Below are positions 2,988 through 34,365 of a stretch of 64,000 nt of DNA, piece after piece (position 1 is the first letter of the stretch; the number at the start of each line of letters is the position of its first letter). The notes beneath the pieces were generated by a model. That model was not told where the DNA came from. It made no database searches and worked only from the letters and a program-made list of their open reading frames with translations. The stretch is from Candidatus Magasanikiibacteriota bacterium (GTDB lineage Bacteria; Patescibacteriota; Patescibacteriia; Magasanikbacterales; GWA2-37-8). The stretch lies in contig JBAYHH010000001.1 in assembly GCA_041666265.1 (NCBI GenBank), positions 72,056 to 136,055 of the forward strand, read 5' to 3'. The position numbers and the translations under genes are program-made.

Positions 2988-3115
2988 TTTAACTCATAGA
3001 TATTATACTATATGCGTCGATATGCGTAAAGTGGATAAGATGCGGGCGCGCAAACGCGTTAACGGCATTTTTCCTATCATATCATTTTCAATAAAATCAT
3101 TGATCGATCAAAAAT

Positions 3116-3709
3116 ATGCTTGAACACTTTTTTGGTTCAAAGACCCGAGTCAAGTTACTACAGATATTTTTTCGTCATCCGGAAAAACCGTTTTTTGTGC
3201 GCGAGCTTTCTCGCCTGGCTGATTTGCAATTAAATACGATTCGCCGTGAATTGGCCAATCTCGAAGGGGTGGGATTAATCGCGACAGTGGAAGGAGTAGG
3301 TGGATCGGAAGCCACCGGCACGGAGCGATCACGCTATTACAAGCTTAATTCAGCGAATTTGCTCTTGCCCGAGCTTAGAGCCTTATTATTCAAGGCGCAA
3401 GTGCTGGAAGAACAAGAGTTTATCAATATTTTAAAAGATAAAGTCGGTAAATTAAATTATTTTTTGCTTTCCGGTATTTTTTCCAATGCCAGCGACAGCC
3501 AAACCGACATGCTTTTGGTGGGCGATATCAAAGAAACCACGCTGGAGCGTCTCGTAAAAGAATTTGAAAAAGTAGTAAGCGCGCCTATTCGTTATACCGT
3601 AATGACGGACAAAGAATTCGAGGATCGACGGGAGATCGGGGATCGTTTTTTATATAGCGTGCTTGAGGCGAAACATATTTTAGTGATTGACAATTTTAAC
3701 TTAAATTAA
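3116..3709 (+). CDS. hypothetical protein with N-terminal winged-helix-like region (possible DNA-binding protein)
   Basis: 197-aa ORF; N-terminal KTRVKLLQIFFRHPEKPFFVRELSRLADLQLNTIRRELANLEGVGLI resembles wHTH regulators. Confidence 0.5.
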   Translation: MLEHFFGSKTRVKLLQIFFRHPEKPFFVRELSRLADLQLNTIRRELANLEGVGLIATVEGVGGSEATGTERSRYYKLNSANLLLPELRALLFKAQVLEEQEFINILKDKVGKLNYFLLSGIFSNASDSQTDMLLVGDIKETTLERLVKEFEKVVSAPIRYTVMTDKEFEDRREIGDRFLYSVLEAKHILVIDNFNLN

Positions 3710-3711
3710 AC

Positions 3712-4077
3712 ATGCGTTTACTGTTGGACAATTCAAGCAATGACACTATCGTTTGGATGCCGGAGAACGGCGAGTGGTTTGAGTTTGGGCAAAAATTGGG
3801 AGTGCTGGCTGGTTTGGAAGCGTTGTTAAAAAAGAAAAATGTTAAATTGGCGGATGTTTCCGGATTAGCCGTTGTGGTTGGTCGGGGGCGCTTTACCTCG
3901 ACGCGGATTGCCGCGACGGTCGCCAATACCTTGGCTTATGCTTTACAAATTCCAATTGTCGCTGTTAATGACAGCCGAGAAAAATGGTTGGATAAATTAA
4001 GTGTTCAACCGGTCGGTCAATATATTAGCGCGCAATACAGCGCCGAGGCCAATATCGGGAAAAAATTCATCGAATAA
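3712..4077 (+). CDS. tsaB: tRNA threonylcarbamoyladenosine biosynthesis protein TsaB-like (short, N-terminal YeaZ domain only)
   Basis: GVLAGLEALL...LAVVVGRGRFTSTRIAATVANTLAYALQIPIVAVN matches YeaZ/TsaB N-terminal actin-like fold motifs (GPGSFTGLRIG-like). Confidence 0.5.
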   Translation: MRLLLDNSSNDTIVWMPENGEWFEFGQKLGVLAGLEALLKKKNVKLADVSGLAVVVGRGRFTSTRIAATVANTLAYALQIPIVAVNDSREKWLDKLSVQPVGQYISAQYSAEANIGKKFIE

Positions 4078-4078
4078 T

Positions 4079-5563: not shown

Positions 5564-5567
5564 ATTT

Positions 5568-6992: not shown

Positions 6993-7051
6993 TATTTAGA
7001 GCGGTATTTTTGGTTTTTGAAATTTATTTAGAACTTGTAATTTGATCCAGT

Positions 7052-8059
7052 ATGTTTATCAAAAAAATCGGCATCGATCTCGGCTCCAACAATGTTTTGG
7101 TTTATGTTTCCAAAAAAGGAATCGTAGTAAACGAACCGAGCGTCGTGGCTTTGTCCAAGGGCGACGGCAAGGTGCTTGCGGTCGGACTGGAGGCCAAAGA
7201 TATGATCGGGCGCACACCCGATACCATTAGCGCGCAGCAACCGGTCAAAGAAGGAGTGATCGCGAATTATCATATTACCGAAGCAATGTTGCGCTATTTT
7301 GTGAACAAAGCTTTGGGTGGGATGCGTTTGTTTCGGCCGGAAGTGATGATTGCGGTGCCGGCCGGCATTACTTCTACCGAACGCCGAGCCGTGATCGACG
7401 CCACTATCGCCGCGGGCGCGCGCGCCGCTTATATTATCAAGCAACCGATTGTGGCCGCCATTGGAGCGGATATTCCGATTGGCGCCGCGGCCGGTCATAT
7501 GGTCATCGATATTGGCGCCGGCAAGGCCGAAATCGCCGTTATTTCATTGGGTGGCATCGTGACCTGGGGTTCGGTGCGCATCGGCGGCAATAAATTCGAC
7601 AGCTCAATCGTAGATTATGTCCGTCATAAATATAATATGGCTATCGGTGAACACAGTGCCGAAGAGATTAAAATTCAGGTGGGATCGGCAATGTTTATGG
7701 ACAAGCCGATTTCCGTTGAGACCAAGGGTCGCGATATGATTGCCGGTTTGCCTCGTATTATTACCGTTAATTCTGACGATATCACCGAGGCTATTCAGCA
7801 TGATTTGGACCTGCTCACAGACGCTATTAAAGATGTTTTACACAAAACTCCGCCCGAGCTTTCCGCTGATATTATGGACAAGGGCATTATTTTGACCGGT
7901 GGTTCGGCGCAATTGCGTAATATGAGCGCGCTGATCGCGCAGTCCACCGGCGTGCCGACTTATGTGGCCGAAGAGCCCAGCCTATGTGTGGCAAAGGGGA
8001 CGGGCATTGCTCTGGAAAATCTGGAAAATTACAAGCGCAGTATCATGGCTACCAAATAA
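7052..8059 (+). CDS. mreB: rod shape-determining actin homologue MreB
   Basis: IGIDLGSNNVLVYV phosphate-1 motif, DIGAGKAEIAV phosphate-2, LTGGSAQLRN adenosine motif; 335 aa. Confidence 0.9.
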   Translation: MFIKKIGIDLGSNNVLVYVSKKGIVVNEPSVVALSKGDGKVLAVGLEAKDMIGRTPDTISAQQPVKEGVIANYHITEAMLRYFVNKALGGMRLFRPEVMIAVPAGITSTERRAVIDATIAAGARAAYIIKQPIVAAIGADIPIGAAAGHMVIDIGAGKAEIAVISLGGIVTWGSVRIGGNKFDSSIVDYVRHKYNMAIGEHSAEEIKIQVGSAMFMDKPISVETKGRDMIAGLPRIITVNSDDITEAIQHDLDLLTDAIKDVLHKTPPELSADIMDKGIILTGGSAQLRNMSALIAQSTGVPTYVAEEPSLCVAKGTGIALENLENYKRSIMATK

Positions 8060-8088
8060 TTGCCAAGAATCCAAAAAATTGATAAAAT
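8060..8088 (+). promoter_or_regulatory. sigma70-like promoter TTGCCA-17-TAAAAT, giving a leaderless or near-leaderless holB transcript
   Basis: -35 TTGCCA 8060-8065, 17-nt spacer, -10 TAAAAT 8083-8088, ATG at 8095. Confidence 0.45.
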
Positions 8089-8094
8089 ATTACT

Positions 8095-9045
8095 ATGCTA
8101 ATCGGTCACCGGAAAATCGAGCAATTTTTTGATAACGCCAGCGTTTATGGCGGTTTGGGACACGCCTATTGTTTGGTGGGGGTTGAAAGCGTGGGTAAAC
8201 GAGCGTTGGTCGAGCATTTGGCCGCCAAACTGATCAAAATTGCGCCGGAACGCGTTTCATCCCACCCCGACTATTATTATTTGGCGCGTTCGATAGATGA
8301 AAAGACTGACAAATTACACAAAGATATCAGTGTAGTCCAGGCGCGTGATTTGCGTGAACGCCTGCAAAATATGTCTTGGAGCGGGGGGTATCAAATCATC
8401 GTTATCGACGAAGCGGAGTTATTAAGCATTCCGGCGGCCAACGCGCTTTTGAAAATTCTCGAAGAGCCGCCCCAAAAAAGTATTTTCTTTTTACTCACTA
8501 CCGATGAACAGACGATGTTGCCCACTATTCGTTCGCGCTGTCAGCTTTTTTATTTTGCTCTCGTGGATAGTATGGAAATCAGGGCGGGATTGATCGCGCT
8601 CGGTTGCGACGAGGACACCGCGGATACAGCGGCCAAATTATCATGGGGCCGGCCGGGTAGGGCGCTGGCGTTTTGGCAGGATAGCGCCAAGCGTCAACAG
8701 TATTATTTTGAATTAAAAAGATTATCACAAATGATCGGCGCCCCTTTTCATGTCAAAATCGCGCAAGTGGATGAGTTATTTGGGAAAAAAGATGAAGATG
8801 TTCAACTCAAGCGCGGGCGCTGGCGCGAGGTAATTAAAATTTGGCAAATGGTATGGCGCGACGCTTTATTGTCAAAATTATCAGCGGGCAAAGGCGAGAG
8901 CACTGAAAGCGATTTGATAAAATATAGCGCGGTGCCGGCGCAAAAAATCACAATGATTATCGATCGGCTCACGAACGCGGAAAAATTAATGGGAGAAAAT
9001 ATCAATCCGCGTCTGCTTATCGAAGAATTGATTACCGAATTTTAA
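8095..9045 (+). CDS. holB: DNA polymerase III delta-prime subunit
   Basis: clamp-loader AAA+ fold: VGKRALVEHLA (degenerate Walker A typical of delta-prime), IIVIDEAELL (Walker B), LLKILEEPP sensor motif. Confidence 0.8.
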   Translation: MLIGHRKIEQFFDNASVYGGLGHAYCLVGVESVGKRALVEHLAAKLIKIAPERVSSHPDYYYLARSIDEKTDKLHKDISVVQARDLRERLQNMSWSGGYQIIVIDEAELLSIPAANALLKILEEPPQKSIFFLLTTDEQTMLPTIRSRCQLFYFALVDSMEIRAGLIALGCDEDTADTAAKLSWGRPGRALAFWQDSAKRQQYYFELKRLSQMIGAPFHVKIAQVDELFGKKDEDVQLKRGRWREVIKIWQMVWRDALLSKLSAGKGESTESDLIKYSAVPAQKITMIIDRLTNAEKLMGENINPRLLIEELITEF

Positions 9046-9070
9046 AACATTAAAAAATAATTTAATTTAT

Positions 9071-10162
9071 ATGCGGTCAAAAATATTTCTTTTGGGGGCG
9101 CTCGCGGTCGCGACGGTTTTACTTGGCGCGGGTTGTATTTCACTGGGTGGCGGATCTTCGTCGGTGGGTCCGATGGGTATGTTTCGCTCTGTCGATAAAG
9201 GCGATACTTGGTCGGCGATTACCGCCTATCCCACCGCCAAAGGAGTGGGCAGTATTTCCGGTTTAAAAATTTTTCGTCTGTATAATGACCCCACCGATCC
9301 CAATGCCTATTATGCGGCCACGCGCGGGCAGGGTATGTATTTTACCTATAACAACGGCGATAGCTGGCAAACAATTTCCGCTTTGGCCGGCAAGTTTATT
9401 TACGGTTTTGATATCGACTCCAAAGATAAATGCACTCTTTACGCGGCCGACAACGCGCATATATATAAATCCACCGATTGTTCGCGCACTTGGGTGACTG
9501 TCTATACCGAGGAACGACCAACCCAACGGTTTGTGTCGCTCGCGATTGATAAAGGCGACAGTAATTATTTGTATGCCGCTGAAGTGGGCGGAGATATTTT
9601 GCAAAGCAGTGATGCCGGAGTCAGTTGGAAAATTGTCAAGCGATTTGGTTTTGACCTCCAGCATTTGGTGGCGGATCCGCAGTTATCCAAGCGCATCTAT
9701 GCGGCGGCATACCGCAAAGGGTTATTTCGTTCTGATGACGGTGGCGTGACTTGGGTTGATTTGAACGCCGGCCTCAATGCTTATAACGACAGCAAAACAT
9801 TTTATCGTTTGGTGTTAAATCCGGCCCAGACCAACAGTCTGTTTTGGATTTCCAAATACGGTATTTTGCGATCAGACGATGCCGGAGTTACCTGGAGCGA
9901 GCTCAAATTACTGACACCACCGGGTAATGTCAGTATCTATGCTTTTGCCATCAATCCAAAAAATCAAAAAGAAATATATTACACCGGCACTATTTTGGGT
10001 GATAAAAATGTTCATGTCCGTTCCACTTTTTATAAATCAGTGGACGGCGGCATCAATTGGGTGACCAAAAACTTGCCGACTAATACCGTGCCGGCTTCGA
10101 TGCTCATTCATCCGGTCAATACCAAAATTTTATTTTTAGGTTTTACTTTGTTAGATAACTAA
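9071..10162 (+). CDS. BNR/Asp-box repeat lipoprotein (Ycf48/sialidase-like beta-propeller)
   Basis: lipobox LLGAGC; seven S-x-D-x-G-x-T-W Asp-box repeats (SVDKGDTW, YNNGDSW, STDCSRTW, SSDAGVSW, SDDGGVTW, SDDAGVTW, SVDGGINW). Confidence 0.8.
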   Translation: MRSKIFLLGALAVATVLLGAGCISLGGGSSSVGPMGMFRSVDKGDTWSAITAYPTAKGVGSISGLKIFRLYNDPTDPNAYYAATRGQGMYFTYNNGDSWQTISALAGKFIYGFDIDSKDKCTLYAADNAHIYKSTDCSRTWVTVYTEERPTQRFVSLAIDKGDSNYLYAAEVGGDILQSSDAGVSWKIVKRFGFDLQHLVADPQLSKRIYAAAYRKGLFRSDDGGVTWVDLNAGLNAYNDSKTFYRLVLNPAQTNSLFWISKYGILRSDDAGVTWSELKLLTPPGNVSIYAFAINPKNQKEIYYTGTILGDKNVHVRSTFYKSVDGGINWVTKNLPTNTVPASMLIHPVNTKILFLGFTLLDN

Positions 10163-19475: not shown

Positions 19476-21251
19476 ATGGCGAAATTAAAAGACACTCCAA
19501 AATTTGATCGACCACGAGAAAAATATATTGAAAAAGGTCCTGACGCGCTAACCGATAGCGAACTTTTGGCGATTTTACTTGGCAATGGCACAAAAGGCAT
19601 GAATGTAAAAGTCGTTGCGCAAAAAATTATAAAAAAATTTGGAACCAATCTGATAAATGTGTCGGTTGACGAACTGAAAGAAATTAAAGGAATTGGGCAA
19701 GCAAAGGCATTACAAATTGTTTCGGTGATTGCGTTGGCGAAACGACTGTTTGATAAGCAAAATGCGCCGGACAATTTAGTTTTATCTGCGCAAGACGCGG
19801 TAAAATTAGTGATAGAATTGAAAGATAAAAAACAAGAACACCTCGTTTGTTTGTATCTTAATGCTCGCAATGCCTTAATTAAAAAGGAAATTGTTTCCAT
19901 TGGAACGCTGGACAAAAGCATTGTTCATCCGCGTGATATTTTTGCATTGGGTTTAGAGTTGCATGCGGCCGGTGTTATTCTCATACACAATCATCCGTCC
20001 GGGGATGTTAGACCAAGCGAGCAGGATAAGCAAGTTGTCAAAAGAATTATTGAAGCTGGGCAGTTAATGGGTGTTAACGTCGTAGATTTTCTCATAGTGG
20101 CCAAGAATGCCACGCATAGCGTGTTGGGTGAAACCAGTAACACCAAGTTAGCCGACATCGAATATGTGGCCGAAGGATTGCAAGCGTCGTTGTTTAGTTT
20201 GCTAACGGAAACAAAGCAGGTTTATTTTTATGGAAACAATTTGATTGATACTTCGCCGACCAGCAGTAAAAGTTTTCGTTTCATTGATTTGTTTGCCGGC
20301 ATTGGCGGTATACGAATCGCTTTTGAACGCAATGGCGGTCAATGTGTTTTCACATCTGAATTTGATGAACCGTGCCAAGTAATGTATGAGGCAAATTTTG
20401 GAGATAAACCACATGGAGATATCACGAAAATTTCTGCCGATGAAATACCGGATCACGATATTTTAACTGGCGGTTTTCCCTGCCAAGCATTTAGTATAAT
20501 TGGAAAGAAACGTGGATTTGCGGATACTCGCGGCACTTTATTTTTTGATGTTGAAAGAATTTTAAAGGTGAAACAACCAAAAGCTTTTCTTCTGGAGAAT
20601 GTAAAACAGTTAACATCTCATGACGGGGGGCGCACATTTAAGATAATTATAGAATCTTTAAAAAATCTAGGGTATTATGTCCATTACAAAGTGCTTAACG
20701 GTCTTGACTTTGGTGTGCCACAAAGACGACAAAGGATAATGATAGTTGGTTTCAAAGAGAATTATCCTTTTGAATTTCCGAAGAGCGGATCGGATAACAA
20801 AACATTAGCCGATATTTTGGAACCGGACGGCAAAATTGATAAAAAACATTATCTAAGCGACAGTTTTCGGAAAAAATTGCAAGAAAGATTAAAAGAACAG
20901 GGCAAAAAGCCTGCACCCCAACCATCTGTTTGGCATGAGAATAAAGGTGGCAATATCGGGATGCACCCTTACTCGTGCGCGTTGAGAGCCAATGGATCTT
21001 ATAATTATTTGACAGTGAACGGAGAGCGACGACTTACACCAAGAGAAATGTTGCGTTTGCAAGGATTCCCAGATACTTTTAGAGTTGTTGTTCCGGATAC
21101 ACAAGTGAGAAAACAAGCGGGCAATAGTGTGGTTATTCCAAAAATTCAAGCAGTCGCGCGCGCTATGGTGGAAGCAATGAAACAGCCAGCAAGGGACGAA
21201 TCACATAAAGTTGGCTCATTAATTAATAAATCTGAAATAATTTATGCCTAA
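19476..21251 (+). CDS. fusion protein: N-terminal RadC (HhH + JAB/MPN, UPF0758) domain joined to a C-terminal DNA (cytosine-5)-methyltransferase
   Basis: aa 1-225: DSELLAILLGNG...GIGQAKALQI (HhH) and HNHPSGDVRPSEQD (JAMM). aa ~260-591: m5C-MTase motif I DLFAGIGG, motif IV GFPCQAFS, motif VI LLENVKQL, motif X QAGNSV. Confidence 0.8.
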   Translation: MAKLKDTPKFDRPREKYIEKGPDALTDSELLAILLGNGTKGMNVKVVAQKIIKKFGTNLINVSVDELKEIKGIGQAKALQIVSVIALAKRLFDKQNAPDNLVLSAQDAVKLVIELKDKKQEHLVCLYLNARNALIKKEIVSIGTLDKSIVHPRDIFALGLELHAAGVILIHNHPSGDVRPSEQDKQVVKRIIEAGQLMGVNVVDFLIVAKNATHSVLGETSNTKLADIEYVAEGLQASLFSLLTETKQVYFYGNNLIDTSPTSSKSFRFIDLFAGIGGIRIAFERNGGQCVFTSEFDEPCQVMYEANFGDKPHGDITKISADEIPDHDILTGGFPCQAFSIIGKKRGFADTRGTLFFDVERILKVKQPKAFLLENVKQLTSHDGGRTFKIIIESLKNLGYYVHYKVLNGLDFGVPQRRQRIMIVGFKENYPFEFPKSGSDNKTLADILEPDGKIDKKHYLSDSFRKKLQERLKEQGKKPAPQPSVWHENKGGNIGMHPYSCALRANGSYNYLTVNGERRLTPREMLRLQGFPDTFRVVVPDTQVRKQAGNSVVIPKIQAVARAMVEAMKQPARDESHKVGSLINKSEIIYA

Positions 21252-22302
21252 CATTAGAATGTCAAAAGAGGCGATAGATACAATTATCCGCAAGTCGCGC
21301 GTCCATTTGTATAAGCCAATCCAAATTGCCGAATTACTATATCATCACAGAATAGATAAAAAACGATGGGACCTGCTTGATCTGGAATCGTATCGCAATG
21401 TATCAAAAAGATGGCGCGACGAAGTGTCCAATCGTTTGGTTGGCAGAATTTGCACATCAAGTCAAAAATTTCAAGATAATATTTTTGATACAAACGCAAT
21501 GCCGCCCAAGTTGCTGCGCGATTTAGGTCTTTTCAATAAGCGACGCAATGGGTTCGTAGAAGCGTATATTTATAATGCCTTAAATGAAAGACTGTCATCG
21601 GTGCATGATGTAAACACTTACATTCACAAATCAACAGCGGTGAGTTTTGATTTAAAAAAGATAGTCGCTTTGTTTGAGTTGAGCCCGGGATTAAAAAGAA
21701 GTGTGGACAAAATTTATGAAATTCTTGTATATGCGTTATTTTCTACTATCGTAAGAGCTCTACGCGCCCAAATAACACTTGAAATTTTGAACGAAGACAA
21801 GCAGCTGCTTAAAGATTTTGAGTCCTTTATTAAAATGGTGATGGGTATTGATGCCAAGAATACAAAGATAATATTGCCTGCAGCTTTATATAGAGCCGGT
21901 GTCGCCAATGCCGCAGATAGAGGGTTGGATATGTGGGCAAATTTCGGTCTGGCTATTCAAGTTAAACATTTAACACTTACGCCGGAATTAATGGAGGATG
22001 TGGCGAATGAAATAGCGGCGGATAGAATGGTTGTGGTTTGTATAGATTCCGAGAAAGAGGCCATAAATAATTTATTATCGCAAGTTGGTTGGGGAGAAAA
22101 AATCCATGGGATTATCACCATTGATGATCTGGATCAATGGTATAAAATTTGTCTTAGCGATAAGTATAGAAGTAATTTAGGTAAAAATTTATTGAAGGAT
22201 GTTGAAAGAGAGTTTGGTCTGGAATTCCCATCAAATTCTGAATTGATTCCATTTATAAACGAACGCGGATACGCGAAATTTAAGACGGATTTTAAATGGT
22301 AA
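21244..22302 (+). CDS. putative type II restriction endonuclease (unknown specificity), translationally coupled to the MTase
   Basis: 8-nt overlap with the MTase gene; AT-rich (~38% GC, estimated by eye); 352 aa with no similarity to housekeeping families. Assignment is by gene context. Confidence 0.45.
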   Translation: MPNIRMSKEAIDTIIRKSRVHLYKPIQIAELLYHHRIDKKRWDLLDLESYRNVSKRWRDEVSNRLVGRICTSSQKFQDNIFDTNAMPPKLLRDLGLFNKRRNGFVEAYIYNALNERLSSVHDVNTYIHKSTAVSFDLKKIVALFELSPGLKRSVDKIYEILVYALFSTIVRALRAQITLEILNEDKQLLKDFESFIKMVMGIDAKNTKIILPAALYRAGVANAADRGLDMWANFGLAIQVKHLTLTPELMEDVANEIAADRMVVVCIDSEKEAINNLLSQVGWGEKIHGIITIDDLDQWYKICLSDKYRSNLGKNLLKDVEREFGLEFPSNSELIPFINERGYAKFKTDFKW

Positions 22303-22446: not shown

Positions 22447-23301
22447 ATGCTATTATATACTGCAAACAAGCACTTGTCAATAGAAAATTTTGATATTTTA
22501 TCTAATATTAGCCAAAAGGGGCTGTGGATAAGTAATAATATGTCCGAATATTACACCCCTCAACGCACTAAAAATTTATACGACCCAAAATCACTGGACT
22601 CTTTTAAACTCTCGCGTTCCAAGATAGATTTGTTTTTAGAGTGTCCGCGTTGTTTTTATTTAGACCGTCGTTTAGGTGTGGGCCGACCGCCCGGATTTCC
22701 ATTTGCACTTAATTCGGCTGTGGATAAGTTGCTCAAGAAGGAATTTGATATCCACCGTGCTAAAAAACAGGCGCATCCATTGATAACCCACTACGGCGTT
22801 GACGCAGTGCCAATCGCGCACAAAGATTTGGATATCTGGCGTGAAAATTTTAAAGGCATACAATATTTACACGAGCCAACCAATTTGGTTATCACCGGCG
22901 CTATTGATGATCTCTGGCAAAATTCAAAAGGGGAGTATATTGTGGTGGATTATAAGTCCACATCCAAGGACGAAGATATTACCGAGCTTAATAAAGATTG
23001 GCAAGGCGGCTATAAGCGCCAAATGGAGGTGTACCAGTGGCTATTACGCCGGAATGGATATAAAGTGTCTAAGACTGGGTATTTTGTTTATTGCAATGGC
23101 CAAACCGACCGCAAGGCGTTTGATGCTAAGTTGGAATTTGATATCACTTTAATTGCCTACAAGGGCGATGATTCTTGGGTGGATAAAGCTGTTATTGGCG
23201 CGCATAAGTGTTTGAATGGCAATAAAATTCCAAAATCCGGCGCGGATTGCGATTATTGTGCGTATGTACAGGCGGTAGAAAGTAAAACATTGTTGACTTA
23301 G
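22447..23301 (+). CDS. Cas4/RecB-like PD-(D/E)xK nuclease with predicted Fe-S cluster cysteines (start uncertain; alternative ATG at 22540)
   Basis: N-terminal CPRCFY; AIDDLW...YIVVDYKST (D...D/ExK); QMEVYQW (QxxxY); C-terminal C-x14-CDYC cysteine cluster. Confidence 0.65.
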   Translation: MLLYTANKHLSIENFDILSNISQKGLWISNNMSEYYTPQRTKNLYDPKSLDSFKLSRSKIDLFLECPRCFYLDRRLGVGRPPGFPFALNSAVDKLLKKEFDIHRAKKQAHPLITHYGVDAVPIAHKDLDIWRENFKGIQYLHEPTNLVITGAIDDLWQNSKGEYIVVDYKSTSKDEDITELNKDWQGGYKRQMEVYQWLLRRNGYKVSKTGYFVYCNGQTDRKAFDAKLEFDITLIAYKGDDSWVDKAVIGAHKCLNGNKIPKSGADCDYCAYVQAVESKTLLT

Positions 23302-25163: not shown

Positions 25164-25234
25164 TCCGGGGTCGTCCAACGGCAAGACAGCGGGCTTTGAA
25201 TCCGTTTATCCTGGTTCGAATCCAGGCCCCGGAA
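25164..25234 (+). tRNA. tRNA-Gln(UUG)
   Basis: U1:A72 acceptor (TCCGGGG/CCCCGGA), anticodon stem GCGGG/TCCGT with loop CTTTGAA (UUG), T-arm CCTGG-TTCGAAT-CCAGG identical to the E. coli tRNA-Gln T-arm. Confidence 0.8.
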
Positions 25235-25250
25235 CAATGGGAATAAAAAA

Positions 25251-25585: not shown

Positions 25586-26287
25586 ATGGAAACCACAAAA
25601 ATAAAATTTGGCAAATCAGAGTTTACCTTGCATTTGCGTGACGAGGCGGACATTTCCGTGATGCGCGAGATTTTTAAGTTGCGCGAATATCGCATCGCCG
25701 AAGAAGCGATCAAATCCGCCGCCGACCCAATATTTGACATTGGCGCTCACGCTGGATTTTTTAGTATATATTGTCGGGCGCTCAACCACCAAGTCGAGAT
25801 TGTTGCGCTCGAGCCCGAGCCTGATAATGTGAAAATATTTAAACAACACCTCAAAGATAATAAAATTGCGGGTGTGAAAGTTATTTCCGGCGCGTTGGCC
25901 GGTCAAACAGGGGATAGATGGTTGCGAATTTCTATTGACAGTCATAATCATGCCTTGACGGACAGCCCAACGGTCAGTGAATCGGCATCCATCAAAGTTC
26001 ACGCGTTTTCTTTGCGTGATTTTTGTAAAAATGAGAAAGTCAAAAAAATATCACTTTTAAAAATGGATATTGAAGGCGGGGAATACGAAGTGCTCGAAAA
26101 TCTCACCCCGAGCGATTATCGTCTGTTCAAATACGCAATTTTGGAGTATCATGATAGTCAGAGACGAAATTTCAGGGTGTTGGAAAAATTATTGCGGGAA
26201 AACGGTTTTGGGGTGCAGATATTTCCATCCAAATTTGATAAAAACATGGGATTTATTTTTGCTTCTAACAAAAGAGGGGTTGTATGA
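25586..26287 (+). CDS. FkbM-family SAM-dependent methyltransferase (Methyltransf_21)
   Basis: FDIGAHAGFFSIY glycine-rich SAM-binding motif typical of FkbM. Start set at 25586, downstream of the promoter; the ORF track has 25550. Confidence 0.7.
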   Translation: METTKIKFGKSEFTLHLRDEADISVMREIFKLREYRIAEEAIKSAADPIFDIGAHAGFFSIYCRALNHQVEIVALEPEPDNVKIFKQHLKDNKIAGVKVISGALAGQTGDRWLRISIDSHNHALTDSPTVSESASIKVHAFSLRDFCKNEKVKKISLLKMDIEGGEYEVLENLTPSDYRLFKYAILEYHDSQRRNFRVLEKLLRENGFGVQIFPSKFDKNMGFIFASNKRGVV

Positions 26288-27606
26288 TCGAAAAAGCTTG
26301 GATCGTCACGGTCGACATGGGCTATGGGCATCAGCGCGCCGCCTATCCTTTGCGCGGTTTGTCTCCGACCGGTAAAGTCATCGTAGCCAATAATTACGCC
26401 GGTATTCCCAATAGCGATCGGCGCATTTGGGAATCTTCGCGCAAATTTTATGAATTTGTTTCTCGATTTACCAATATTCCCTTGATCGGGCGCCGACTTT
26501 TTAAATTTTATGATCAGATCCAAAAAATTCCCGAGTTTTATCCGCGCCGAGACATGTCCAATCCGAGCTTACAGGTGCGTCAGATGTATCGGCTGATTGA
26601 TACTGGTTGGGGTAAAAATTTAATCGAGTATCTAAACACTGAAAATGTGCCATTGATTACAACTTTTTTTACCGTGGCATTCATGGCGGAGGAACACAAA
26701 TTTAAAAATGATATTTATTGCGCGCTTTGCGACGCGGATATTTCTCGCACCTGGGTCGGTCTTCATCCCCATAAAAGCCGGATCAAGTATCTGGCTCCCT
26801 GTCGGCGCGTAGTGGAGAGGTTGAAATTATACGGTGTTAAGCCGGAAAATATTTTTTTAACCGGCTTTCCCTTGCCCGAAGAAAATTTAGGCCGAGAATT
26901 AGACGCTCTTAAAAATGATTTGGCCGAACGCATCGTTAATCTCGATCCCGAGCATCGCTATCGCTATAAATACGGCGAGACCGTGAAGCATTTTCTCGAA
27001 GGAATAAAAATTAATGCTCATCACCACCATCCATTGACCATCACCTTTGCGGTGGGTGGAGCCGGAGCGCAAAAAAATTTAGCATCCGATATTTTACGGA
27101 GTTTGCGCAAAAAATTACTTAAAGGAGAAGTTAATTTAAATTTGGTTGCCGGTGTGCGCAATGATGTTTATTTGTATTTCAAAAAAGAGATTGCGCGACT
27201 GAAACTCAACAAAGTTTTTGGCGAGAATCTAAATATTTTGTTTTCACCGGACAAAGAAGATTATTTTACCAAGCTTAATGCTTGCCTGCGTTCGACTGAT
27301 ATTTTTTGGACCAAACCGAGCGAATTGGTGTTTTATAGCGCCCTGGGCCTGCCGATCGTGATGGCGCCGTCAGTGGGGTCCCAGGAGGACTTCAATCGGC
27401 TGTGGCTAAAGACCATAGGGGCCGGAATATCGCAAAATAACCCCCGCTACACGCACGAATGGCTGTTTGATTGGATTCGGTCCGGTTGGCTGGCCGAAGC
27501 CGCTATGGCGGGCTTTTTGGATGGCCGGCAGTGGGGTGTGCACAACATCAAGCAGGTGGTATTTCACGGGGTCAAAGAACCGGCCAAAAACCATCAATTA
27601 TTGTAA
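26284..27606 (+). CDS. GT-B fold glycosyltransferase (GT28/MGDG-synthase/MurG-like)
   Basis: N-terminal DMGYGHQRAAYPL matches the G-x-G-H-x-x-A motif of MGDG synthase/UgtP/MurG N-domains; C-terminal LGLPIVMAPSVGSQEDFN. ATGA overlap with the FkbM gene. Confidence 0.55.
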   Translation: MIEKAWIVTVDMGYGHQRAAYPLRGLSPTGKVIVANNYAGIPNSDRRIWESSRKFYEFVSRFTNIPLIGRRLFKFYDQIQKIPEFYPRRDMSNPSLQVRQMYRLIDTGWGKNLIEYLNTENVPLITTFFTVAFMAEEHKFKNDIYCALCDADISRTWVGLHPHKSRIKYLAPCRRVVERLKLYGVKPENIFLTGFPLPEENLGRELDALKNDLAERIVNLDPEHRYRYKYGETVKHFLEGIKINAHHHHPLTITFAVGGAGAQKNLASDILRSLRKKLLKGEVNLNLVAGVRNDVYLYFKKEIARLKLNKVFGENLNILFSPDKEDYFTKLNACLRSTDIFWTKPSELVFYSALGLPIVMAPSVGSQEDFNRLWLKTIGAGISQNNPRYTHEWLFDWIRSGWLAEAAMAGFLDGRQWGVHNIKQVVFHGVKEPAKNHQLL

Positions 27607-27709: not shown

Positions 27710-27769
27710 ATTTGCTTCGCTCGCTCGGAAATGAAAATTAATTTTCATTTCCGAGCGAGCGAAGCAAAT
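27710..27769. repeat. 60-nt perfect palindrome (ATTTGCTTCGCTCGCTCGGAAATGAAAATT|AATTTTCATTTCCGAGCGAGCGAAGCAAAT)
   Basis: reverse complement checked base by base for the central 56 nt; extends to 60 nt; lies in a convergent intergenic region. Confidence 0.9.
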
Positions 27770-27774
27770 TAACT

Positions 27775-27806
27775 GGGCGGGCGGAAGGAAGGGGTGTGAG
27801 GAGGGA
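27775..27806 (+). repeat. G-rich tract with four G3+ runs (GGGCGGGCGGAAGGAAGGGGTGTGAGGAGGG), potential G-quadruplex
   Basis: seen directly. Confidence 0.5.
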
Positions 27807-27860
27807 ATTCTGCTCGCCTACCGTGGCCCTGTTAGGATTGTCGATTTTAAGTTTTTACAT

Positions 27861-27896
27861 TAAAAAACAAAAGACAACCGTGATTGTCTTTTGTTG
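27861..27896 (-). terminator. rho-independent terminator of the DUF4325/GHKL operon (minus strand)
   Basis: minus-strand read ACAAAAGACAA-tcacgg-TTGTCTTTTGT-TTTTTA immediately after the stop codon. Confidence 0.7.
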
Positions 27897-28259
27897 TTAG
27901 CACGAACATTTCGCTAACGCATTAATATCTGTTTTTTCAATCTGAATATTTATTTCACTATTTCTCGGCACTGCGCGATTGGCTGCCACTATTCGGAACA
28001 TCTCTTGTACATTTTCGATAGTATTTACGAAAGTTATGTATTTTTTGTTCAACCATTTTCTTTGTAAATCTTCTTTCATTAAAAGCAGTGCGTGAGCAGC
28101 CGAACGAGAAACAAATTCAACCTCGGAAAAGTCTAAATCAACCGATTGAGCATCGGCCTTATTTACCGCTTCGACCAAAACCGGCATCAAATCGCGAGAT
28201 CCCACGATCGGGGCCAATGTCTTGGCCACATTGATTGTTATTTTGTCTTGTTTAGCCAT
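27897..28259 (-). CDS. DUF4325 (STAS-like) domain protein
   Basis: 120 aa; ITINVAKTL...SVDLDFSEVEFVSRSAAHALL...ITFVNTIENVQEMF follows the DUF4325/STAS-like pattern (V-x-x-DF-x-x-V-x-x-x-S-S-F-x-x-E). Confidence 0.55.
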   Translation of the reverse strand: MAKQDKITINVAKTLAPIVGSRDLMPVLVEAVNKADAQSVDLDFSEVEFVSRSAAHALLLMKEDLQRKWLNKKYITFVNTIENVQEMFRIVAANRAVPRNSEINIQIEKTDINALAKCSC

Positions 28260-28287
28260 ATAATTTTAGTATACCAGAAAAAGTATA

Positions 28288-29142
28288 TTATTCCAAATAA
28301 GGAGAAATGTCAACTGGACCGAGCGGTTTTGGTATGCGATACGCGACAACAACGCCTTGCCAATAAAATCCGGGTAAGTCCACAATTTTTTGATCTTTAC
28401 CACTTGCCACTAAGGCAGACGAACCAGATAAAAGCACAAATTCGCCACCCAAACATTCACAAACTACTTTTTTTGATGTGCGCACGCCATAACCGCGCTC
28501 CACGCTTGGTTTGGTGGAGTGACCTTTCAAAACTTCCACTATTGAATCCGCGTCGGATAATTTTAATCCTTTCTCCTCTTCATAAGTTTTAGCCAATCCG
28601 CGCCCACAGTCAACGATGCAAATATCCAAATAATTTTTCTTGGGATAAAATTGTCCAAAGATAAAGCCTTTATCTTGTTTGCTGTGATCAAAAATGTTGG
28701 TAACGAGTTCTGTAATCGGATAATGCACCGCATTTTGCGCGCCGGCTACTGAACCCAAAACGCTGTACACCATCATAGAAAAAAGCGACTCCAATCTTTC
28801 TCGCTCCGGCCCTTTTTCTTTTTTCAAAATACTAATCGGAATATAACTTTTGTGCGCTTGGATTTGTTGTTGGAAAACCGAAACGCTATCAACTCCATAT
28901 GGAAAATTTATTGCGTTTAAATATGAGTGGTTGACATTGTTTTCGTCCTTACAATGGCGGCTGTTATAACAGTTTATATGTGCGCTCAACGGTAAGATTA
29001 AAAGAGGATAAAACCAATCTACATTAGAGATATCAAAATCACGTTGGTCAGAAAAATTAGTATCCTTAAAAACTTTATATAAGCACACCAGTTGAGCGAC
29101 TAACGAGCTATCGTTTGGTTTGGGAACAATGTATTTTTCCAT
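28288..29142 (-). CDS. GHKL-superfamily ATPase (HATPase_c, RsbW/anti-sigma-kinase-like) with a ~130-aa N-terminal domain of unknown function
   Basis: N-box ITELVTNIFDHS, G1 box IVDCGRGL, G2 box KGHSTK...GYGVR; AT-rich coding sequence. Confidence 0.65.
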   Translation of the reverse strand: MEKYIVPKPNDSSLVAQLVCLYKVFKDTNFSDQRDFDISNVDWFYPLLILPLSAHINCYNSRHCKDENNVNHSYLNAINFPYGVDSVSVFQQQIQAHKSYIPISILKKEKGPERERLESLFSMMVYSVLGSVAGAQNAVHYPITELVTNIFDHSKQDKGFIFGQFYPKKNYLDICIVDCGRGLAKTYEEEKGLKLSDADSIVEVLKGHSTKPSVERGYGVRTSKKVVCECLGGEFVLLSGSSALVASGKDQKIVDLPGFYWQGVVVAYRIPKPLGPVDISPYLE

Positions 29143-29254
29143 ACATTAATTATATCATATTGTTATTTTATCCTAAATATTACAAAATAACAAGCTTTTT
29201 TAAACTTGTCTACGATAGTGAGTCGCCGCCGAAATCGGGCCCTATTCAACTGTG

Positions 29255-29325
29255 TTCCGAGACTAGGATTCGAACCTAGATAACGAGATTCAGAGTCTCG
29301 TGTCCTACCATTAGACGATCTCGGA
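29255..29325 (-). tRNA. tRNA-Gln(CUG)
   Basis: minus-strand read TCCGAGATCGTCTAATGGTAGGACACGAGACTCTGAATCTCGTTATCTAGGTTCGAATCCTAGTCTCGGAA; anticodon stem CGAGA/TCTCG with loop CTCTGAA (CUG). Confidence 0.8.
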
Positions 29326-31809: not shown

Positions 31810-34365
31810 TTAAAGACTGGCTTCACTTAAATCATTTTTTACCGTTGCGGGCGCGCCCAGTTGCGAGCGCTCCATAATTTCGGATTCGACGATTTCGCGC
31901 GGTCGGCCGTATTTGAGGCGAGATAGTTCTTTGATGGCGGCGGCCAGCTCGAGGTCGCCTTTCTGCGGGGGGAAGGTCATCATATTAAACGGCTTACAAG
32001 CAGTATTGTCAATAAGCAATTTAATGTAGGCGGTGTATTGCTCGACATTGATGAGATCGTGCGCGTTGAATACCGGCATAAATTCTTTTTGCAAAATCTC
32101 GGCATCATCCGGGCCGATGCGAAATGTCACGATCGTGCCGGCGTTGCCGATCACCGCGTCTCGGACCGTATTCTTTCCTTTATTGTCTACCAGCTGTCCC
32201 ATATATTGGTGGGCGATGATTAAATCGAGGCGGTATTTGCGCGCTTCAGACAAAATCGTAGCGATCGAATCGGTGATGAAATTTTGAAACTCGTCGATGT
32301 ATAAATAAAAATCGTGGCGATCGTCTTCGGCGAGGCTGGCGCGCTCCATCGCGGCCATTTGGAGTTTGGATACGATGATCATGCCGAGCATGTTGGAGTT
32401 GATCTCACCCACGAGACCTTTGGCCAAATTTACCAATAATATTTTTTTGTTATCCATCACTTCGCGAAAATTAAATCCGGAATGCGATTGGCCGATAATA
32501 TTGCGCATCATCGAGTTTTCGACAAAACGGCCGACTTTGGAAATCAAATAACCAAGCATTTCCGATTTGTGGAAATCAGATGTTTTGGCCATTTCTTTGT
32601 CCCAAAAGGCCATTACTACCGGATCTTTGAGTTTCTTTTTCCAACCGGCGACAAAGGCGTCATCGGTGAACATGCGCGGGACTTCGGCGATTGTGCCGGG
32701 AGTTTCGAGATCAGACATGAGGGTAAGCATTACATTGCGCATGTTGTGCTCAAACATCGGGCCGATCATTGACGGGTCCGTCACCATTTTATAAAACATG
32801 GCGATCATTTCTTGGGTGGCAAAATCTTTTTGTTCTTCGGATTTGACTTCAAGCATGTTGAGACCGACCGGACGATCAGTATCGGACGGATTGAAATAGA
32901 TCACATCATCGGCGCGTTCTTTGGGGACATGCTGTAAAACATATTCCACAAAATCCCCGTGCGGATCGATGACACACACGCCTTCGCCGTTAATCACATC
33001 TTGCACCGCCATGTTTTGGATAAAGACCGATTTACCCACACCGGATTTACCGATGGTATAGACATGGCGCCGGCGATCCGGTTTTTTGATGCGCACGGCT
33101 ACTTCTTCGCCGCGATAGACAGATCGCCCCAAGATGATGCCCTCGGTAGGCATATTGGTGGGCGGGGGAGCCTTGCGCGCGCCGAGCCAGTTGATGTGCG
33201 GGGTCTCGGTGCCCGGATTGGGCATGTGCCAGAGTGAGGCCATCTCCTCGGTATTGACCACCATGTATTTGCGTTCATTGAAAGAGCGGTAAATCGATTC
33301 GCGAATTAGACTGCTCGGACGGCTCGGCACTTTGGCGACAAAAGAATTGCCATAACGATAAATATTATACTGGCCGTAAGCGTTTAAAATATTTTGCAAA
33401 GTCAGAATGGCTTTTTCTTTGTTGCCGGCCGCCGTCACGACGCGCACATTGAGCTCCAGTCCGCCGTGGCTAAGTTTTTCCTCCATACTTTTGACCATTT
33501 CCTCTTCCATTTGGGTCAAGTGATACGATTCGCCAATGCCGCCTTGTTTGGAAGCGTCTTTGTCTTTGGGAAAAAATGTTTTTCTCCAGCGATAAAATCC
33601 ACGCATCAGCCAGCCGCGCTGAGCGACATATTCAAATTTTTGTCCTTCGCGAATATCGCGAATCATGTGCACGCCTTGCCGACGCCATTTGGCGCTGGCC
33701 GGTCGAACTATGTATTGGATCATCGCGCCCTCGTCGTCGGGAATTTTACTAAGCGGATTGAGCAGTGACAGCAAGGGGTCGCTTTCCATTTTTTTGAAAG
33801 TTTTGAAAGGAAAAGCCGATTTAAATTTATTCCACAGATGGGCGCCCACGATATGGCTATTGGGTTTGAAGATATTGTAATCAGGCTCTTCGGTGATTTC
33901 AGCGTGCGGATATTGCGCGTGGATTTGTTGCTCCACGAAATTGGTCAGTTTATCCGGCACGGCCACATAAAAAGATATTTTTCCACCGGTGGCGACAATC
34001 TCGAATGATAAATGATCATTGCGACCGCGCAACCAAGACAAAAATCCGCTTTCGCGCTTGAGTCCGGCAACGGCGGCAAACAGCGAATCGGCCACGGCGA
34101 TAACTTCACGCGTTAAATTAATGTTTTCCGACTGATTGGCCATGTTTGGATTTTCGTTTTTCTTTTCTTTTGGCACCTTGATCAAGATAATCGTGCGATG
34201 GAAGGCCTTGCCGGATTTATTGCGAGCGCGCCAAAAACCACGAATCACATGTAACGCCATCACCGCTCCAATGATCGCGATCAAGCCCAAAAAAAACAAA
34301 AAGACGGTCGGATGGGATCCGAGCCATTCGCTAAAAACGACAAGCAAATTAATTAGGTCGCTCAT
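31810..34365 (-). CDS. membrane-anchored FtsK/HerA-superfamily ATPase, type IV secretion coupling-protein (VirD4/TraG/TrwB)-like
   Basis: N-terminal TM (FLFFLGLIAIIGAVMAL); C-terminal ATPase with Walker A TIGKSGVGKS followed ~20 aa later by VIDPHGDF (T4CP DPxGE-like motif); SEARKYRLDLIIAHQ arginine-finger region. Confidence 0.6.
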   Translation of the reverse strand: MSDLINLLVVFSEWLGSHPTVFLFFLGLIAIIGAVMALHVIRGFWRARNKSGKAFHRTIILIKVPKEKKNENPNMANQSENINLTREVIAVADSLFAAVAGLKRESGFLSWLRGRNDHLSFEIVATGGKISFYVAVPDKLTNFVEQQIHAQYPHAEITEEPDYNIFKPNSHIVGAHLWNKFKSAFPFKTFKKMESDPLLSLLNPLSKIPDDEGAMIQYIVRPASAKWRRQGVHMIRDIREGQKFEYVAQRGWLMRGFYRWRKTFFPKDKDASKQGGIGESYHLTQMEEEMVKSMEEKLSHGGLELNVRVVTAAGNKEKAILTLQNILNAYGQYNIYRYGNSFVAKVPSRPSSLIRESIYRSFNERKYMVVNTEEMASLWHMPNPGTETPHINWLGARKAPPPTNMPTEGIILGRSVYRGEEVAVRIKKPDRRRHVYTIGKSGVGKSVFIQNMAVQDVINGEGVCVIDPHGDFVEYVLQHVPKERADDVIYFNPSDTDRPVGLNMLEVKSEEQKDFATQEMIAMFYKMVTDPSMIGPMFEHNMRNVMLTLMSDLETPGTIAEVPRMFTDDAFVAGWKKKLKDPVVMAFWDKEMAKTSDFHKSEMLGYLISKVGRFVENSMMRNIIGQSHSGFNFREVMDNKKILLVNLAKGLVGEINSNMLGMIIVSKLQMAAMERASLAEDDRHDFYLYIDEFQNFITDSIATILSEARKYRLDLIIAHQYMGQLVDNKGKNTVRDAVIGNAGTIVTFRIGPDDAEILQKEFMPVFNAHDLINVEQYTAYIKLLIDNTACKPFNMMTFPPQKGDLELAAAIKELSRLKYGRPREIVESEIMERSQLGAPATVKNDLSEASL

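Follow-up and report, generated by a model that had tools for sequence, protein, structure and literature searches.

What is the role of a two-gene cassette, encoding a GHKL-type ATP-binding protein and a small STAS-fold partner, in the genome of a CPR bacterium? The pair, here called A and B, lies in a Candidatus Magasanikiibacteriota assembly (GCA_041666265.1, contig JBAYHH010000001.1), within the 64,000-nucleotide stretch analyzed here, hereafter the window. The answer reached below is that A–B is a relative of an anti-phage switch, one that senses DNA damage, described in 2026, without the cis-encoded effector found in VapKSC and CapKS. In that work, GHKL-kinase/STAS pairs were shown to act as ssDNA-activated switches, CapKS controlling immune operons and VapKSC a PIN toxin (PMC13373217); anti-phage VapKSC comprises the kinase VapK, the STAS antitoxin VapS and the PIN toxin VapC (Chambers et al., EMBO J 2026, PMC13373217). 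In the literature searched on DUF4325 and on STAS and GHKL proteins in defense, this was the only relevant paper.

The two genes form a tight, co-directional bicistron on the minus strand, with an intergenic gap of 28 bp. The cassette and its immediate surroundings are laid out as follows:

26284-27606, plus strand: convergent DUF6938 gene, separated from gene B by a 290-bp spacer
27866..27895, minus strand: intrinsic-terminator-like hairpin of the A–B operon (13-bp stem, 4-nt loop, T-run)
27897..28259, minus strand: gene B, an ORF of 120 aa for the STAS-fold partner, which ends in a short tail
28288..29142, minus strand: gene A, an ORF for a 284-aa STAS-GHKL kinase-like protein of VapK/CapK-type architecture
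29165..29193, minus strand: candidate sigma-70-type promoter for A–B (TTGTTA, 17 nt, TAAAAT), in the interval between tRNA-Gln and A
29254-29325, minus strand: tRNA-Gln, its 3' end toward the A–B cassette

Both ORFs, their sizes and their convergent layout are exactly as given in a first-pass annotation of this DNA, and so is a terminator belonging to the pair itself: the hairpin begins 2 nt past the stop codon of gene B. Assignment of the promoter is weak, coming from a consensus scan in which the candidate matches 9 of 12 positions; chance alone would put 5.1 such sites in the region, which has 9. A search for RNA elements in the spacer gave only spurious miRNA-type matches in Rfam, on a 60-nt palindrome. 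The pair had also been called much more AT-rich than its neighbors. It is AT-rich, with the second and third lowest GC among the 56 genes of the window (0.395 for A and 0.394 for B, where the genes average 0.454, sd 0.037), but moderately so (z about -1.6, or about -2 for GC3), and the genes at 19476-22302 equal it. The neighbors in the window are housekeeping genes: no integrase or phage genes were seen in the window neighborhood, and nowhere in the window is the pair linked to a sigma factor or PP2C phosphatase, to a PIN toxin, or to an HTH domain, in keeping with the earlier statement that a sigma factor or phosphatase partner is missing. Integration at tRNA-Gln was considered and rejected, the pair having no flanking direct repeat of the tRNA 3' end and no integrase nearby.

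The gene A product is 100% identical to a Candidatus Magasanikbacteria protein and belongs to a family of very uniform length, with more than 260 conserved clusters in public data; the kinase profile finds about 960 clusters (50% identity) at E<=1e-10. Sequence conservation inside the CPR is high, at 53-81%. Two domains and two residues of A matter for what follows:

28291..28752, minus strand: A residues 131-284, GHKL (Bergerat-fold) ATP-binding/kinase domain, assigned from motifs and fold matches
28753..29142, minus strand: A residues 1-130, N-terminal STAS-like domain, assigned from the AlphaFold2 (AF2) pattern and profile matches
29005-29007, minus strand: A P46, invariant, aligned with VapK P57 and CapK P97
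29014-29016, minus strand: A W43, aligned with VapK F54

The C-terminal HATPase_c fold with N, G1 and G2 boxes, proposed at first pass, is borne out by the family alignment and by structure. The N-box (E145/N149/H153), G1 (D178-x-G180-x-G182) and G2 (G217-x-G219) are invariant; a basic pair (K168/K169) is present too, the Y-L-E at the C-terminus is conserved, and in Foldseek the AF2 model (pLDDT 88.7) matches GyrB, Hsp90, CheA-P4 and histidine-kinase ATP-binding domains. In Pfam the match to HATPase_c, over residues 137-237, is sub-threshold (21 bits, E=4.6e-4; gathering score 26.4), and the full-length A family profile found no match among PDB sequences. With every ATP-binding motif invariant, the GHKL domain is, as far as sequence can tell, catalytically intact.

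The N-terminal 130 residues, previously left unassigned, turn out to be a STAS-like domain: strands and helices alternate in the AF2 model, and the top solved-structure match of the N-terminal profile is VapS (PDB 9z7o, E=0.0024), with the STAS protein TM1442 also matched (E=0.28). Aligned by hhalign with the B family, this domain gives E=0.0017, but a probability of 15%. A joins a STAS-like and a GHKL domain in one protein, which is the architecture of VapK and CapK. Because of this N-terminal domain, the kinase is to be classed as VapK/CapK-type and not, as first read, RsbW-type; the RsbW-type Pfam model, HATPase_c_2, reaches only 12 bits (E=0.2). Position 43 is W or F in 29/29 CPR members and aromatic in 12/13 diverse relatives. 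Since an aromatic residue here is frequent in STAS beta-3 as part of the structure, W43 does not point specifically to ssDNA binding.

Gene B, with more than 140 conserved clusters in public data, encodes the presumed substrate. Its AF2 model (pLDDT 85) matches STAS structures only, at TM-scores of 0.5-0.58, among them TM1442, SpoIIAA (in complex with SpoIIAB), RsbS and SLC26 STAS. The Pfam matches to STAS_2 (PF13466, 17.7 bits, E=0.004) and STAS (PF01740, 16.6 bits, E=0.007) are sub-threshold, and many members of the B family have precomputed PF01740/PF13466 matches. Pfam finds no HTH in B, which consists of the STAS core and a tail of ~24 aa (residues ~97-120, with a modeled helix at 112-118). 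The suggestion that B is DUF4325/STAS-like stands as to the STAS fold and fails as to a direct DUF4325 match, there being none at E<=1 (PF14213, gathering threshold 23 bits). The relation to DUF4325 is correct all the same, because B is clearly related to ORFC of Methanothermobacter phage psiM100 (BLASTP 1e-10; 48 bits to the B profile, which gives 45 bits for gp42 of Bacteroides phage BF1-TP2), and ORFC itself clears the DUF4325 cutoff, with 29.4 bits; just under it lie the P0301 partner (20.5) and gp42 (17.3). Judged by such transitive homology, B is a divergent relative of DUF4325 and not a scoring member. Direct homology was rejected in two comparisons: hhalign of the B family with Streptococcus DUF4325 proteins gave 1.2% probability, and VapS reaches no more than 4 bits with the B profile; the links to VapS or DUF4325 that hold are transitive, via psiM100 ORFC and gp42. 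The idea that B is a basic nucleic-acid binder was likewise dropped as not robust (family median pI 9.7, B of the window 7.8, range 6.6-10.4).

One short motif in B deserves separate mention:

28101..28109, minus strand: B S51-R52-S53, located where helix alpha-2 starts, the canonical position of the phospho-acceptor in STAS domains

The motif is invariant in 29/29 sequences, and in the model helix alpha-2 begins at residue 52. In the alignment CapS S54 falls on B S53, while VapS S48 and SpoIIAA S58 fall on R52. Candidates for the phosphorylatable Ser/Thr that the first-pass annotation had proposed to look for in B are S51 and S53, but the position of VapS S48/SpoIIAA S58 is taken by Arg. Because this Arg is invariant, it is uncertain which residue would accept the phosphate, and B may even escape phosphorylation altogether.

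How constant is the pair? A is followed by B in 35/35 related CPR loci, at gaps of about 1-70 bp, and the gene after B is mostly more than 100 bp off or on the opposite strand. The same 35 loci show no conserved third gene and no recurrent flanking gene; sigma factors and PP2C/SpoIIE are absent from their recurrent neighbor clusters and 25 most frequent Pfam families, and PIN domains are not among their most frequent neighbor families. The early view that this is not an ordinary stress-sigma partner switch agrees with the lack of a linked sigma factor or PP2C both in the window and across these loci. Distribution is sporadic (search patterns matched 35 of 185,579 species genomes), and the closest relatives, at 75-78% identity, have wholly different neighbors and no synteny. 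Given these differing neighbors, the sporadic distribution and the low GC, the cassette looks mobile, which supports its proposed horizontal acquisition. A peptide-pattern search of IMG/VR viral contigs found no member of the CPR subfamily. Enrichment in defense islands, raised at first pass as something to survey, is seen in part: defense and toxin-antitoxin genes beside the CPR cassettes are modestly and suggestively enriched, as judged after the fact, but the window's own neighborhood is housekeeping. A defense role in the Magasanikiibacteriota genome is plausible, in a local context of housekeeping genes. Both proteins are of uniform length with dozens of invariant residues, including all catalytic motifs, a pattern of conservation from which both are judged to be under strong purifying selection.

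Among more distant relatives, too, the two-gene form is found, in Bacteroides phage, Alistipes, Bacteroidales and Streptococcus contexts. In Bacteroides phage BF1-TP2 the pair gp43/gp42 follows the endolysin (gp43 scores 174 bits with the A profile), and identical copies are present on 68 IMG/VR contigs; an S. agalactiae prophage carries the pair as cargo, with the lysin on one side and paratox on the other, and elsewhere in Streptococcus it follows hsdRMS, a type I R-M operon. In Alistipes it adjoins an integrase and a WYL/WCX regulator on an integrative element that occupies differing chromosomal sites. The archaeal phage psiM100 carries it in the inserted fragment IFa, where ORFB (102 bits with the A profile) and ORFC are similar to MTH315/MTH316. 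As a side observation, psiM100 ORFD gives a weak PIN alignment (E=0.15) with no PDB match, a hint only.

B-like partners likewise come after distant A-like proteins, the helicase fusion P0298 among them; B and the partners of these distant kinases have in common the signature F-x-S-R-S-[FAP]-A-[HD], and the kinases the C-terminal Y-L-E. Membership of A in DISARM as DrmA was considered and rejected: A matches only positions 103-244 of the 1750-position PADLOC model (28 bits) and lacks a helicase domain, and its neighborhood holds no DISARM genes. The PADLOC DrmA model does contain an A-like N-terminus, and A-like modules are fused to helicases, as in P0298. Uncharacterized "ATP-binding protein + DUF4325" pairs, such as gp43/gp42, ORFB/ORFC and the Streptococcus prophage or hsd-linked pairs, represent this same cassette and are the true family nearest to A–B; they lie on recognizable mobile elements, whereas the CPR copy lies between tRNA-Gln and housekeeping genes. 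No experimental study of such pairs was found in the literature searched.

What, then, might A–B do? It is probably a phospho-switch of the same class as CapK/CapS and VapK/VapS, self-contained and horizontally mobile, with A as the sensor kinase and B as its dedicated substrate. By analogy with these systems, kinase activity on B, an ssDNA trigger and an output of the pair may be expected, along the following lines. A trigger would bind in the groove between the two domains of A, as in VapK and CapK, and turn the kinase on; the trigger would most likely be ssDNA from DNA damage, phage replication or incoming DNA, and the groove may be lined by the conserved W43 and the basic K168/K169. Active A would phosphorylate B on S51 or S53, where helix alpha-2 begins, and phosphorylated B would then have altered binding partners. 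Since there is no cis-encoded toxin or DNA-binding domain, either the pair itself would provide the output or a target encoded at another site would. In the version preferred here, unphosphorylated B would restrain A, making the pair a minimal toxin-antitoxin-like module of abortive-infection type. A bolder proposal, doubtful though worth stating, is that the S-R-S cassette is an autonomous, minimal immune or addiction module across bacteria, archaea and their viruses, with A as both nucleic-acid sensor and effector, acting as a promiscuous kinase or ATP-consuming enzyme, and B as antidote or pseudo-substrate.

One alternative would be an ordinary partner switch of the RsbW/RsbV or SpoIIAB/SpoIIAA type. 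The pair would then serve the CPR cell in housekeeping, as a stress regulator, and would not be a conflict module; A would hold back a transcription factor from another locus (e.g., a sigma factor), which unphosphorylated B would set free. The best structural matches of B, which are anti-sigma-factor antagonists and stressosome STAS proteins, lean this way, as do the labels "anti-sigma regulatory factor" and "anti-anti-sigma regulatory factor" given to some members by some sources, the housekeeping neighbors in the window and the degree of conservation in the CPR (53-81%). We nevertheless consider it improbable. No sigma factor or PP2C/SpoIIE recurs near the 35 CPR loci; the extra STAS-like domain of A is foreign to RsbW and SpoIIAB (HATPase_c_2 E=0.2); the cassette is sporadic, AT-rich relative to its host and without synteny even at 75-78% identity; and homologous cassettes are found in archaea and their viruses, where sigma factors do not exist.

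Loss is another way to account for the missing effector: the pair could be what is left, orphaned or in decay, of a VapKSC- or CapKS-type system with three parts, deprived of its PIN toxin, helicase or immune operon and hence a sensor pair with no output. All characterized relatives do have a cis effector (PMC13373217), and in the window there is no third gene and a terminator follows B directly. Such an origin is very hard to credit when the two-gene form is the rule (35/35 CPR loci, and the Bacteroides phage, Alistipes, Bacteroidales and Streptococcus pairs as well), and purifying selection, uniform length and invariant catalytic motifs do not fit decay. A quite improbable reading, with a different biochemistry, makes A an ATPase and not a protein kinase, with B as its regulatory or activating subunit, R52 inserted in the ATP site and B never phosphorylated; the pair would then be an ATP-driven switch or an ATP-consuming effector. 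It would explain the invariant Arg aligned with the phospho-serine of SpoIIAA and VapS, and it suits the top structural matches of A, the GHKL domains of GyrB, Hsp90 and MutL, which are ATPases. Set against it are the closest characterized homologues, which are Ser kinases acting on STAS partners (PMC13373217), and the two invariant serines that flank R52, the second of them (S53) aligned with CapS S54.

The A–B locus belongs to a much larger, uncharacterized sister family of CapKS/VapKSC, in which the sensor pair travels alone, with no linked effector, on phages, on integrative elements and in the chromosomes of bacteria and archaea. Representative homologues number roughly 3,400. Is it a portable, general-purpose sensor of damage or infection to which host targets are coupled, or does the pair by itself make up a complete, minimal defense or addiction module? 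The output of the pair would tell these apart. Defense repertoires and stress signaling of the CPR are poorly known, and the cassette is a conserved, experimentally tractable candidate. If the autonomous-module proposal were true, toxin-antitoxin or abortive-infection systems would gain a new, kinase-based type, and the reduced-genome CPR episymbionts would gain a previously unrecognized sensor of phage or foreign DNA.

Among known systems, RsbW/RsbV and SpoIIAB/SpoIIAA resemble A–B in joining a GHKL-type kinase to a STAS-fold partner. An RsbW-type kinase is, however, a single HATPase_c_2 domain of about 140-160 aa, whereas A has 284 aa and the additional N-terminal STAS-like domain; and RsbW/SpoIIAB modules are linked to sigma factors and PP2C/SpoIIE, whereas A–B is not, and has relatives in archaea and viruses.

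CapK/CapS stands closer: a STAS-GHKL kinase is encoded with a downstream STAS substrate that has Ser at the start of helix alpha-2 (CapS S54, B S53), and ssDNA activates CapK, which phosphorylates CapS S54 (PMC13373217). The two systems also differ. CapK has an N-terminal HTH, its about 57 extra N-terminal residues lacking any counterpart in A, where A begins at its STAS-like domain, and CapK W68 has no aligned counterpart in A; CapS has a C-terminal winged-helix DNA-binding domain, which B lacks, and releases operator DNA (PMC13373217). CapKS directly precedes an immune operon (CBASS, Bub, Thoeris and others), and A–B precedes none. Some distant A–B relatives lie directly downstream of R-M operons, as do some capKS pairs (88/443; PMC13373217).

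VapKSC has a kinase of the same architecture as A. VapK and A both consist of a STAS-like and a GHKL domain in about 300 aa, without an HTH; the A profile scores 31 bits with the VapK GHKL domain (E=7e-12, in a two-sequence test), and the N-terminal domains align in register, weakly (-2.8 bits for the segment). A N149 aligns with VapK N160 and with the catalytic Asn of CapK, N218, and the basic pair K168/K169 with VapK K180/K181 and CapK K239/R240. VapS and B are both small STAS-fold proteins with a short C-terminal helical tail, encoded immediately 3' of the kinase. VapS is a strong DUF4325 member (62.7 bits), whereas B has no direct match, and B has S-R-S where VapS has A-S48-P. In VapKSC, protection against phage is lost with VapK F54A, a change in the conserved aromatic residue needed for responding to ssDNA, or with VapS S48A, and on phosphorylation VapS, the counterpart of B, releases the PIN toxin (PMC13373217); that toxin, VapC, is encoded by a third gene, for which A–B has no equivalent, a terminator following B and the next gene being convergent. 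CapK/CapS and VapK/VapS/VapC, both systems of anti-phage immunity (PMC13373217), are the closest characterized relatives of A–B.

The 284-aa gene A and the 120-aa gene B lie on the same strand with a gap of 28 bp and, as the first-pass annotation had it, form a two-gene unit with a terminator of its own:

29254-29325, minus strand: tRNA-Gln (anticodon CTG), ending 111 bp upstream of A
28288-29142, minus strand: gene A, ORF of 284 aa
27897-28259, minus strand: gene B, ORF of 120 aa
27895 to 27866, minus strand: terminator-like hairpin (13-bp stem, then a T-run), starting 2 nt past the B stop codon

The low GC content that had also been pointed out is genuine, yet moderate: values of 0.395 (A) and 0.394 (B) compare with a mean of 0.454 (sd 0.037) across the 56 genes of the window, among which they rank second and third lowest (z about -1.6 for GC and about -2 for GC3), but the genes at 19476-22302 are just as low in GC. 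The window is from a Candidatus Magasanikbacteria (Patescibacteria/CPR) genome; a protein of that organism is 100% identical to A, and the neighbors are of housekeeping type (FtsE/FtsX, an FkbM methyltransferase, a DUF6938 protein, a C39-like peptidase, DnaX, a TrwB/VirD4-like ATPase and a PD-(D/E)XK nuclease).

The 290-bp spacer between the pair and the convergent gene at 26284-27606 contains a perfect 60-nt palindrome (27710-27769; 30-nt arms without a loop), which occurs once in the window and adjoins a GC-rich run at about 27780-27840. Rfam returned only spurious miRNA-type matches for it; it may serve as a bidirectional terminator or insulator, bind a protein, or be left over from a mobile element. 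A second tRNA-Gln gene (anticodon TTG; 25164-25235, plus strand) lies about 4 kb from the one immediately upstream of A, on the opposite strand; the latter may be co-transcribed with A. The type IV coupling-protein ATPase related to TrwB/VirD4 (851 aa; 31810-34365, minus strand) and the PD-(D/E)XK nuclease gene (22447-23301, plus strand), both less than 6 kb from the cassette, may be linked to DNA uptake or transfer in the host CPR genome.

Protein A is a STAS-like domain joined to a GHKL domain. The HATPase_c fold with N, G1 and G2 boxes noticed earlier is well founded, despite a Pfam match that stays below threshold (21 bits): all Bergerat-fold motifs are invariant among 29 aligned family members (E145, N149 and H153; D178-x-G180-x-G182; G217-x-G219), and the C-terminal half of the AlphaFold2 model (pLDDT 88.7, pTM 0.89) resembles the ATP-binding domains of GyrB, Hsp90, CheA (P4) and histidine kinases, none of them closely. 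The N-terminal 130 residues, previously left unassigned, are modeled as an alternating beta/alpha domain, and can be called STAS-like because, for a profile made from diverse relatives, the top match among solved structures is the STAS protein VapS (PDB 9z7o, E=0.0024); the profile also picks up the anti-sigma antagonist TM1442 and aligns with the B family over the STAS beta-3/alpha-2 motif.

For protein B, described at first as DUF4325/STAS-like, the STAS fold is predicted and the relation to DUF4325 is indirect. In Pfam, STAS and STAS_2 fall below threshold and DUF4325 gives no score, and many of the 143 relatives of B do have STAS matches. In the model (pLDDT 85), the core runs beta-beta-alpha-beta-alpha-beta-alpha and carries a flexible tail with a short helix at its end; the model matches STAS structures alone (TM-scores 0.5-0.58). 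The DUF4325 connection is transitive, through ORFC of Methanothermobacter phage psiM100, a B-like protein that passes the DUF4325 threshold; VapS is itself a strong member. An invariant S51-R52-S53-A-A-H stands precisely at the start of helix alpha-2, and the signature F-x-S-R-S-[FAP]-A-[HD] is common to all scored B-like partners.

With each GTDB species represented by a single genome, a scan yielded 35 CPR loci from many classes, among them Magasanik-, Nealson-, Staskawicz-, Moran-, Komeili-, Kerfeld- and Uhrbacteria and Paceibacterota. In every one of the 35 loci B lies downstream of A, on the same strand (four seeming exceptions are ORF-calling shadows or contig ends), at a distance of about 1-70 bp; beyond the pair there is usually a gap of over 100 bp or a gene of opposite orientation. 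Flanking genes are unconserved, even for copies 75-78% identical to those of the window. The pair is thus an obligate, self-contained cassette without a fixed genomic address, in keeping with its earlier description as mobile-looking; the CPR subfamily was absent from IMG/VR viral contigs in a peptide-pattern search. Among its 123 nearest neighbors, which are mixed and largely housekeeping, neither a sigma factor nor a PP2C or PIN family turns up repeatedly or among the 25 most frequent Pfam families, in line with the initial impression that a sigma factor or phosphatase partner is missing. These neighbors hit 62 PADLOC models, as against 32 for a control set of 123 genes at a distance of 5.5-10.5 kb within these loci. 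The toxin-antitoxin/defense-type minority comprises Fic/SoFic (3), DUF3800/PDC-S04 (3), AbiEii (2) and a type II restriction enzyme (1), the first three being absent from the controls; this enrichment, assessed post hoc, is suggestive. Fic/DOC-family proteins (PADLOC SoFic, about 310-350 aa) directly adjoin the cassette in CPR loci L010, L011 and L033, and one lies near an A-like/DUF4325 pair in Streptococcus (L038); they may be occasional effectors or mere neighbors in the same accessory region. In L033, a Paceibacterota contig, a 3086-aa ORF (30-9290) lies 77 bp upstream of the pair.

The wider family is large: among 1.84 billion representative proteins, the A profile matched 3,393 with E<=1e-3, 960 of them with E<=1e-10, most being 280-310 aa long and matched over their full length. 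Relatives on mobile DNA are tied to the window's genes by their profile scores. Bacteroides phage BF1-TP2 carries gp43 (“ATP-binding protein”; 174 bits with the A profile) and gp42 (“DUF4325”; 45 bits with the B profile) after its endolysin, with identical copies on 68 IMG/VR contigs; in psiM100, ORFB (102 bits) and ORFC (48 bits) lie within the annotated “inserted fragment IFa” (record 6786-9578). A Halobaculum plasmid encodes a further relative (102 bits). In Streptococcus (70 bits) a pair is directly downstream of hsdR-hsdM-hsdS, an S. agalactiae prophage has one between lysin and paratox, and in Bacteroidales the pair occupies a variable region beside hipBA. In Alistipes (L050-L053) an integrase gene is followed by the A-like kinase, the B-like partner, a convergent WYL/WCX regulator and several unknown genes; this arrangement is repeated at differing chromosomal sites, which indicates an integrative element with candidate defense cargo. 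P0298 is a 1266-aa DEAD/Helicase_C protein with an A-like C-terminus, followed by a B-like protein of 117 aa (26 bits; the partner of another relative, P0301, scores 50), and the PADLOC DrmA model PDLC02567 has an A-like N-terminus; judging from these fusions, the sensor pair appears to have been re-employed to regulate helicase-type effectors. IFa, whose insertion sets psiM100 apart from psiM2, also holds the 492-aa ORFD. The PIN profile aligns over its entire length, but weakly (E=0.15), to the ORFD N-terminus, and a PDB sequence search with ORFD gave no match; ORFB, ORFC and ORFD of this archaeal virus may be a trio of the VapKSC kind.

Of the readings considered, a kinase-STAS phospho-switch activated by a trigger has the best support. 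The architecture, homology, intact catalytic site, obligate pairing, conserved Ser-Arg-Ser and mobile contexts are shown; A would phosphorylate B, with ssDNA as the putative trigger. The output of such a switch is probably independent of any lineage-specific partner, since the unit occurs in CPR, Bacteroidales, streptococci, methanogens, haloarchaea and viruses. A minimal toxin-antitoxin-like arrangement, with B holding A in check, is tentatively favored, although the data fit equally well with a target that is encoded elsewhere or is universally conserved. Less well supported than the phospho-switch are a housekeeping partner switch of the sigma type, the decayed remains of a three-gene system, and an ATPase whose partner supplies an Arg finger. 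The evidence partly supports the conflict-module proposal: the pair is not of sigma-B type, looks mobile and is kin to immune switches, but a defense role in the Magasanikbacteria genome is only a plausible candidate.

Those immune switches are the ssDNA-responsive CapKS and VapKSC systems (Chambers et al., EMBO J 2026; PMC13373217). CapK (HTH + STAS + GHKL), activated by ssDNA, phosphorylates S54 of CapS (STAS + winged helix), splitting the CapS dimer and de-repressing a downstream immune operon; VapK is STAS + GHKL, and VapS is the antitoxin of the PIN toxin VapC. Protection against phage Bas42 is lost with VapK F54A and with VapS S48A (PMC13373217). VapK and VapS sequences were taken from that paper's AlphaFold3 files, and its GenBank file supplied those of CapK and CapS (PMC13373217); the transcribed CapK W68, N218, K237 and K239 and CapS S54 agree with its numbering. 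VapK scores 32 bits with the A profile, and the aligned positions are:

Aligned residues of A, VapK and CapK
A N149: VapK N160, CapK N218
A W43: VapK F54, CapK I94 (no aromatic counterpart)
A P46: VapK P57, CapK P97
A K168/K169: VapK K180/K181, CapK K239/R240

A search for a phosphorylatable Ser/Thr in B had been suggested, and S51 and S53 are invariant; CapS S54 falls on S53, but VapS S48 and SpoIIAA S58 fall on R52, which narrows the putative phospho-acceptor only to S51 or S53. In the SpoIIAA sequence used, S58 lies in the expected FMDSSG motif. Unlike VapKSC, A-B has no PIN third gene; CapK has an HTH that A lacks, CapS a winged helix that B lacks, and CapKS a downstream immune operon without counterpart here. 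With these defining output parts absent, A-B resembles the sensing half of these two systems and belongs to neither: it represents a branch of the CapK/VapK-type kinase-STAS modules that has no effector, HTH or PIN part, and is a member of a large and so far uncharacterized family.
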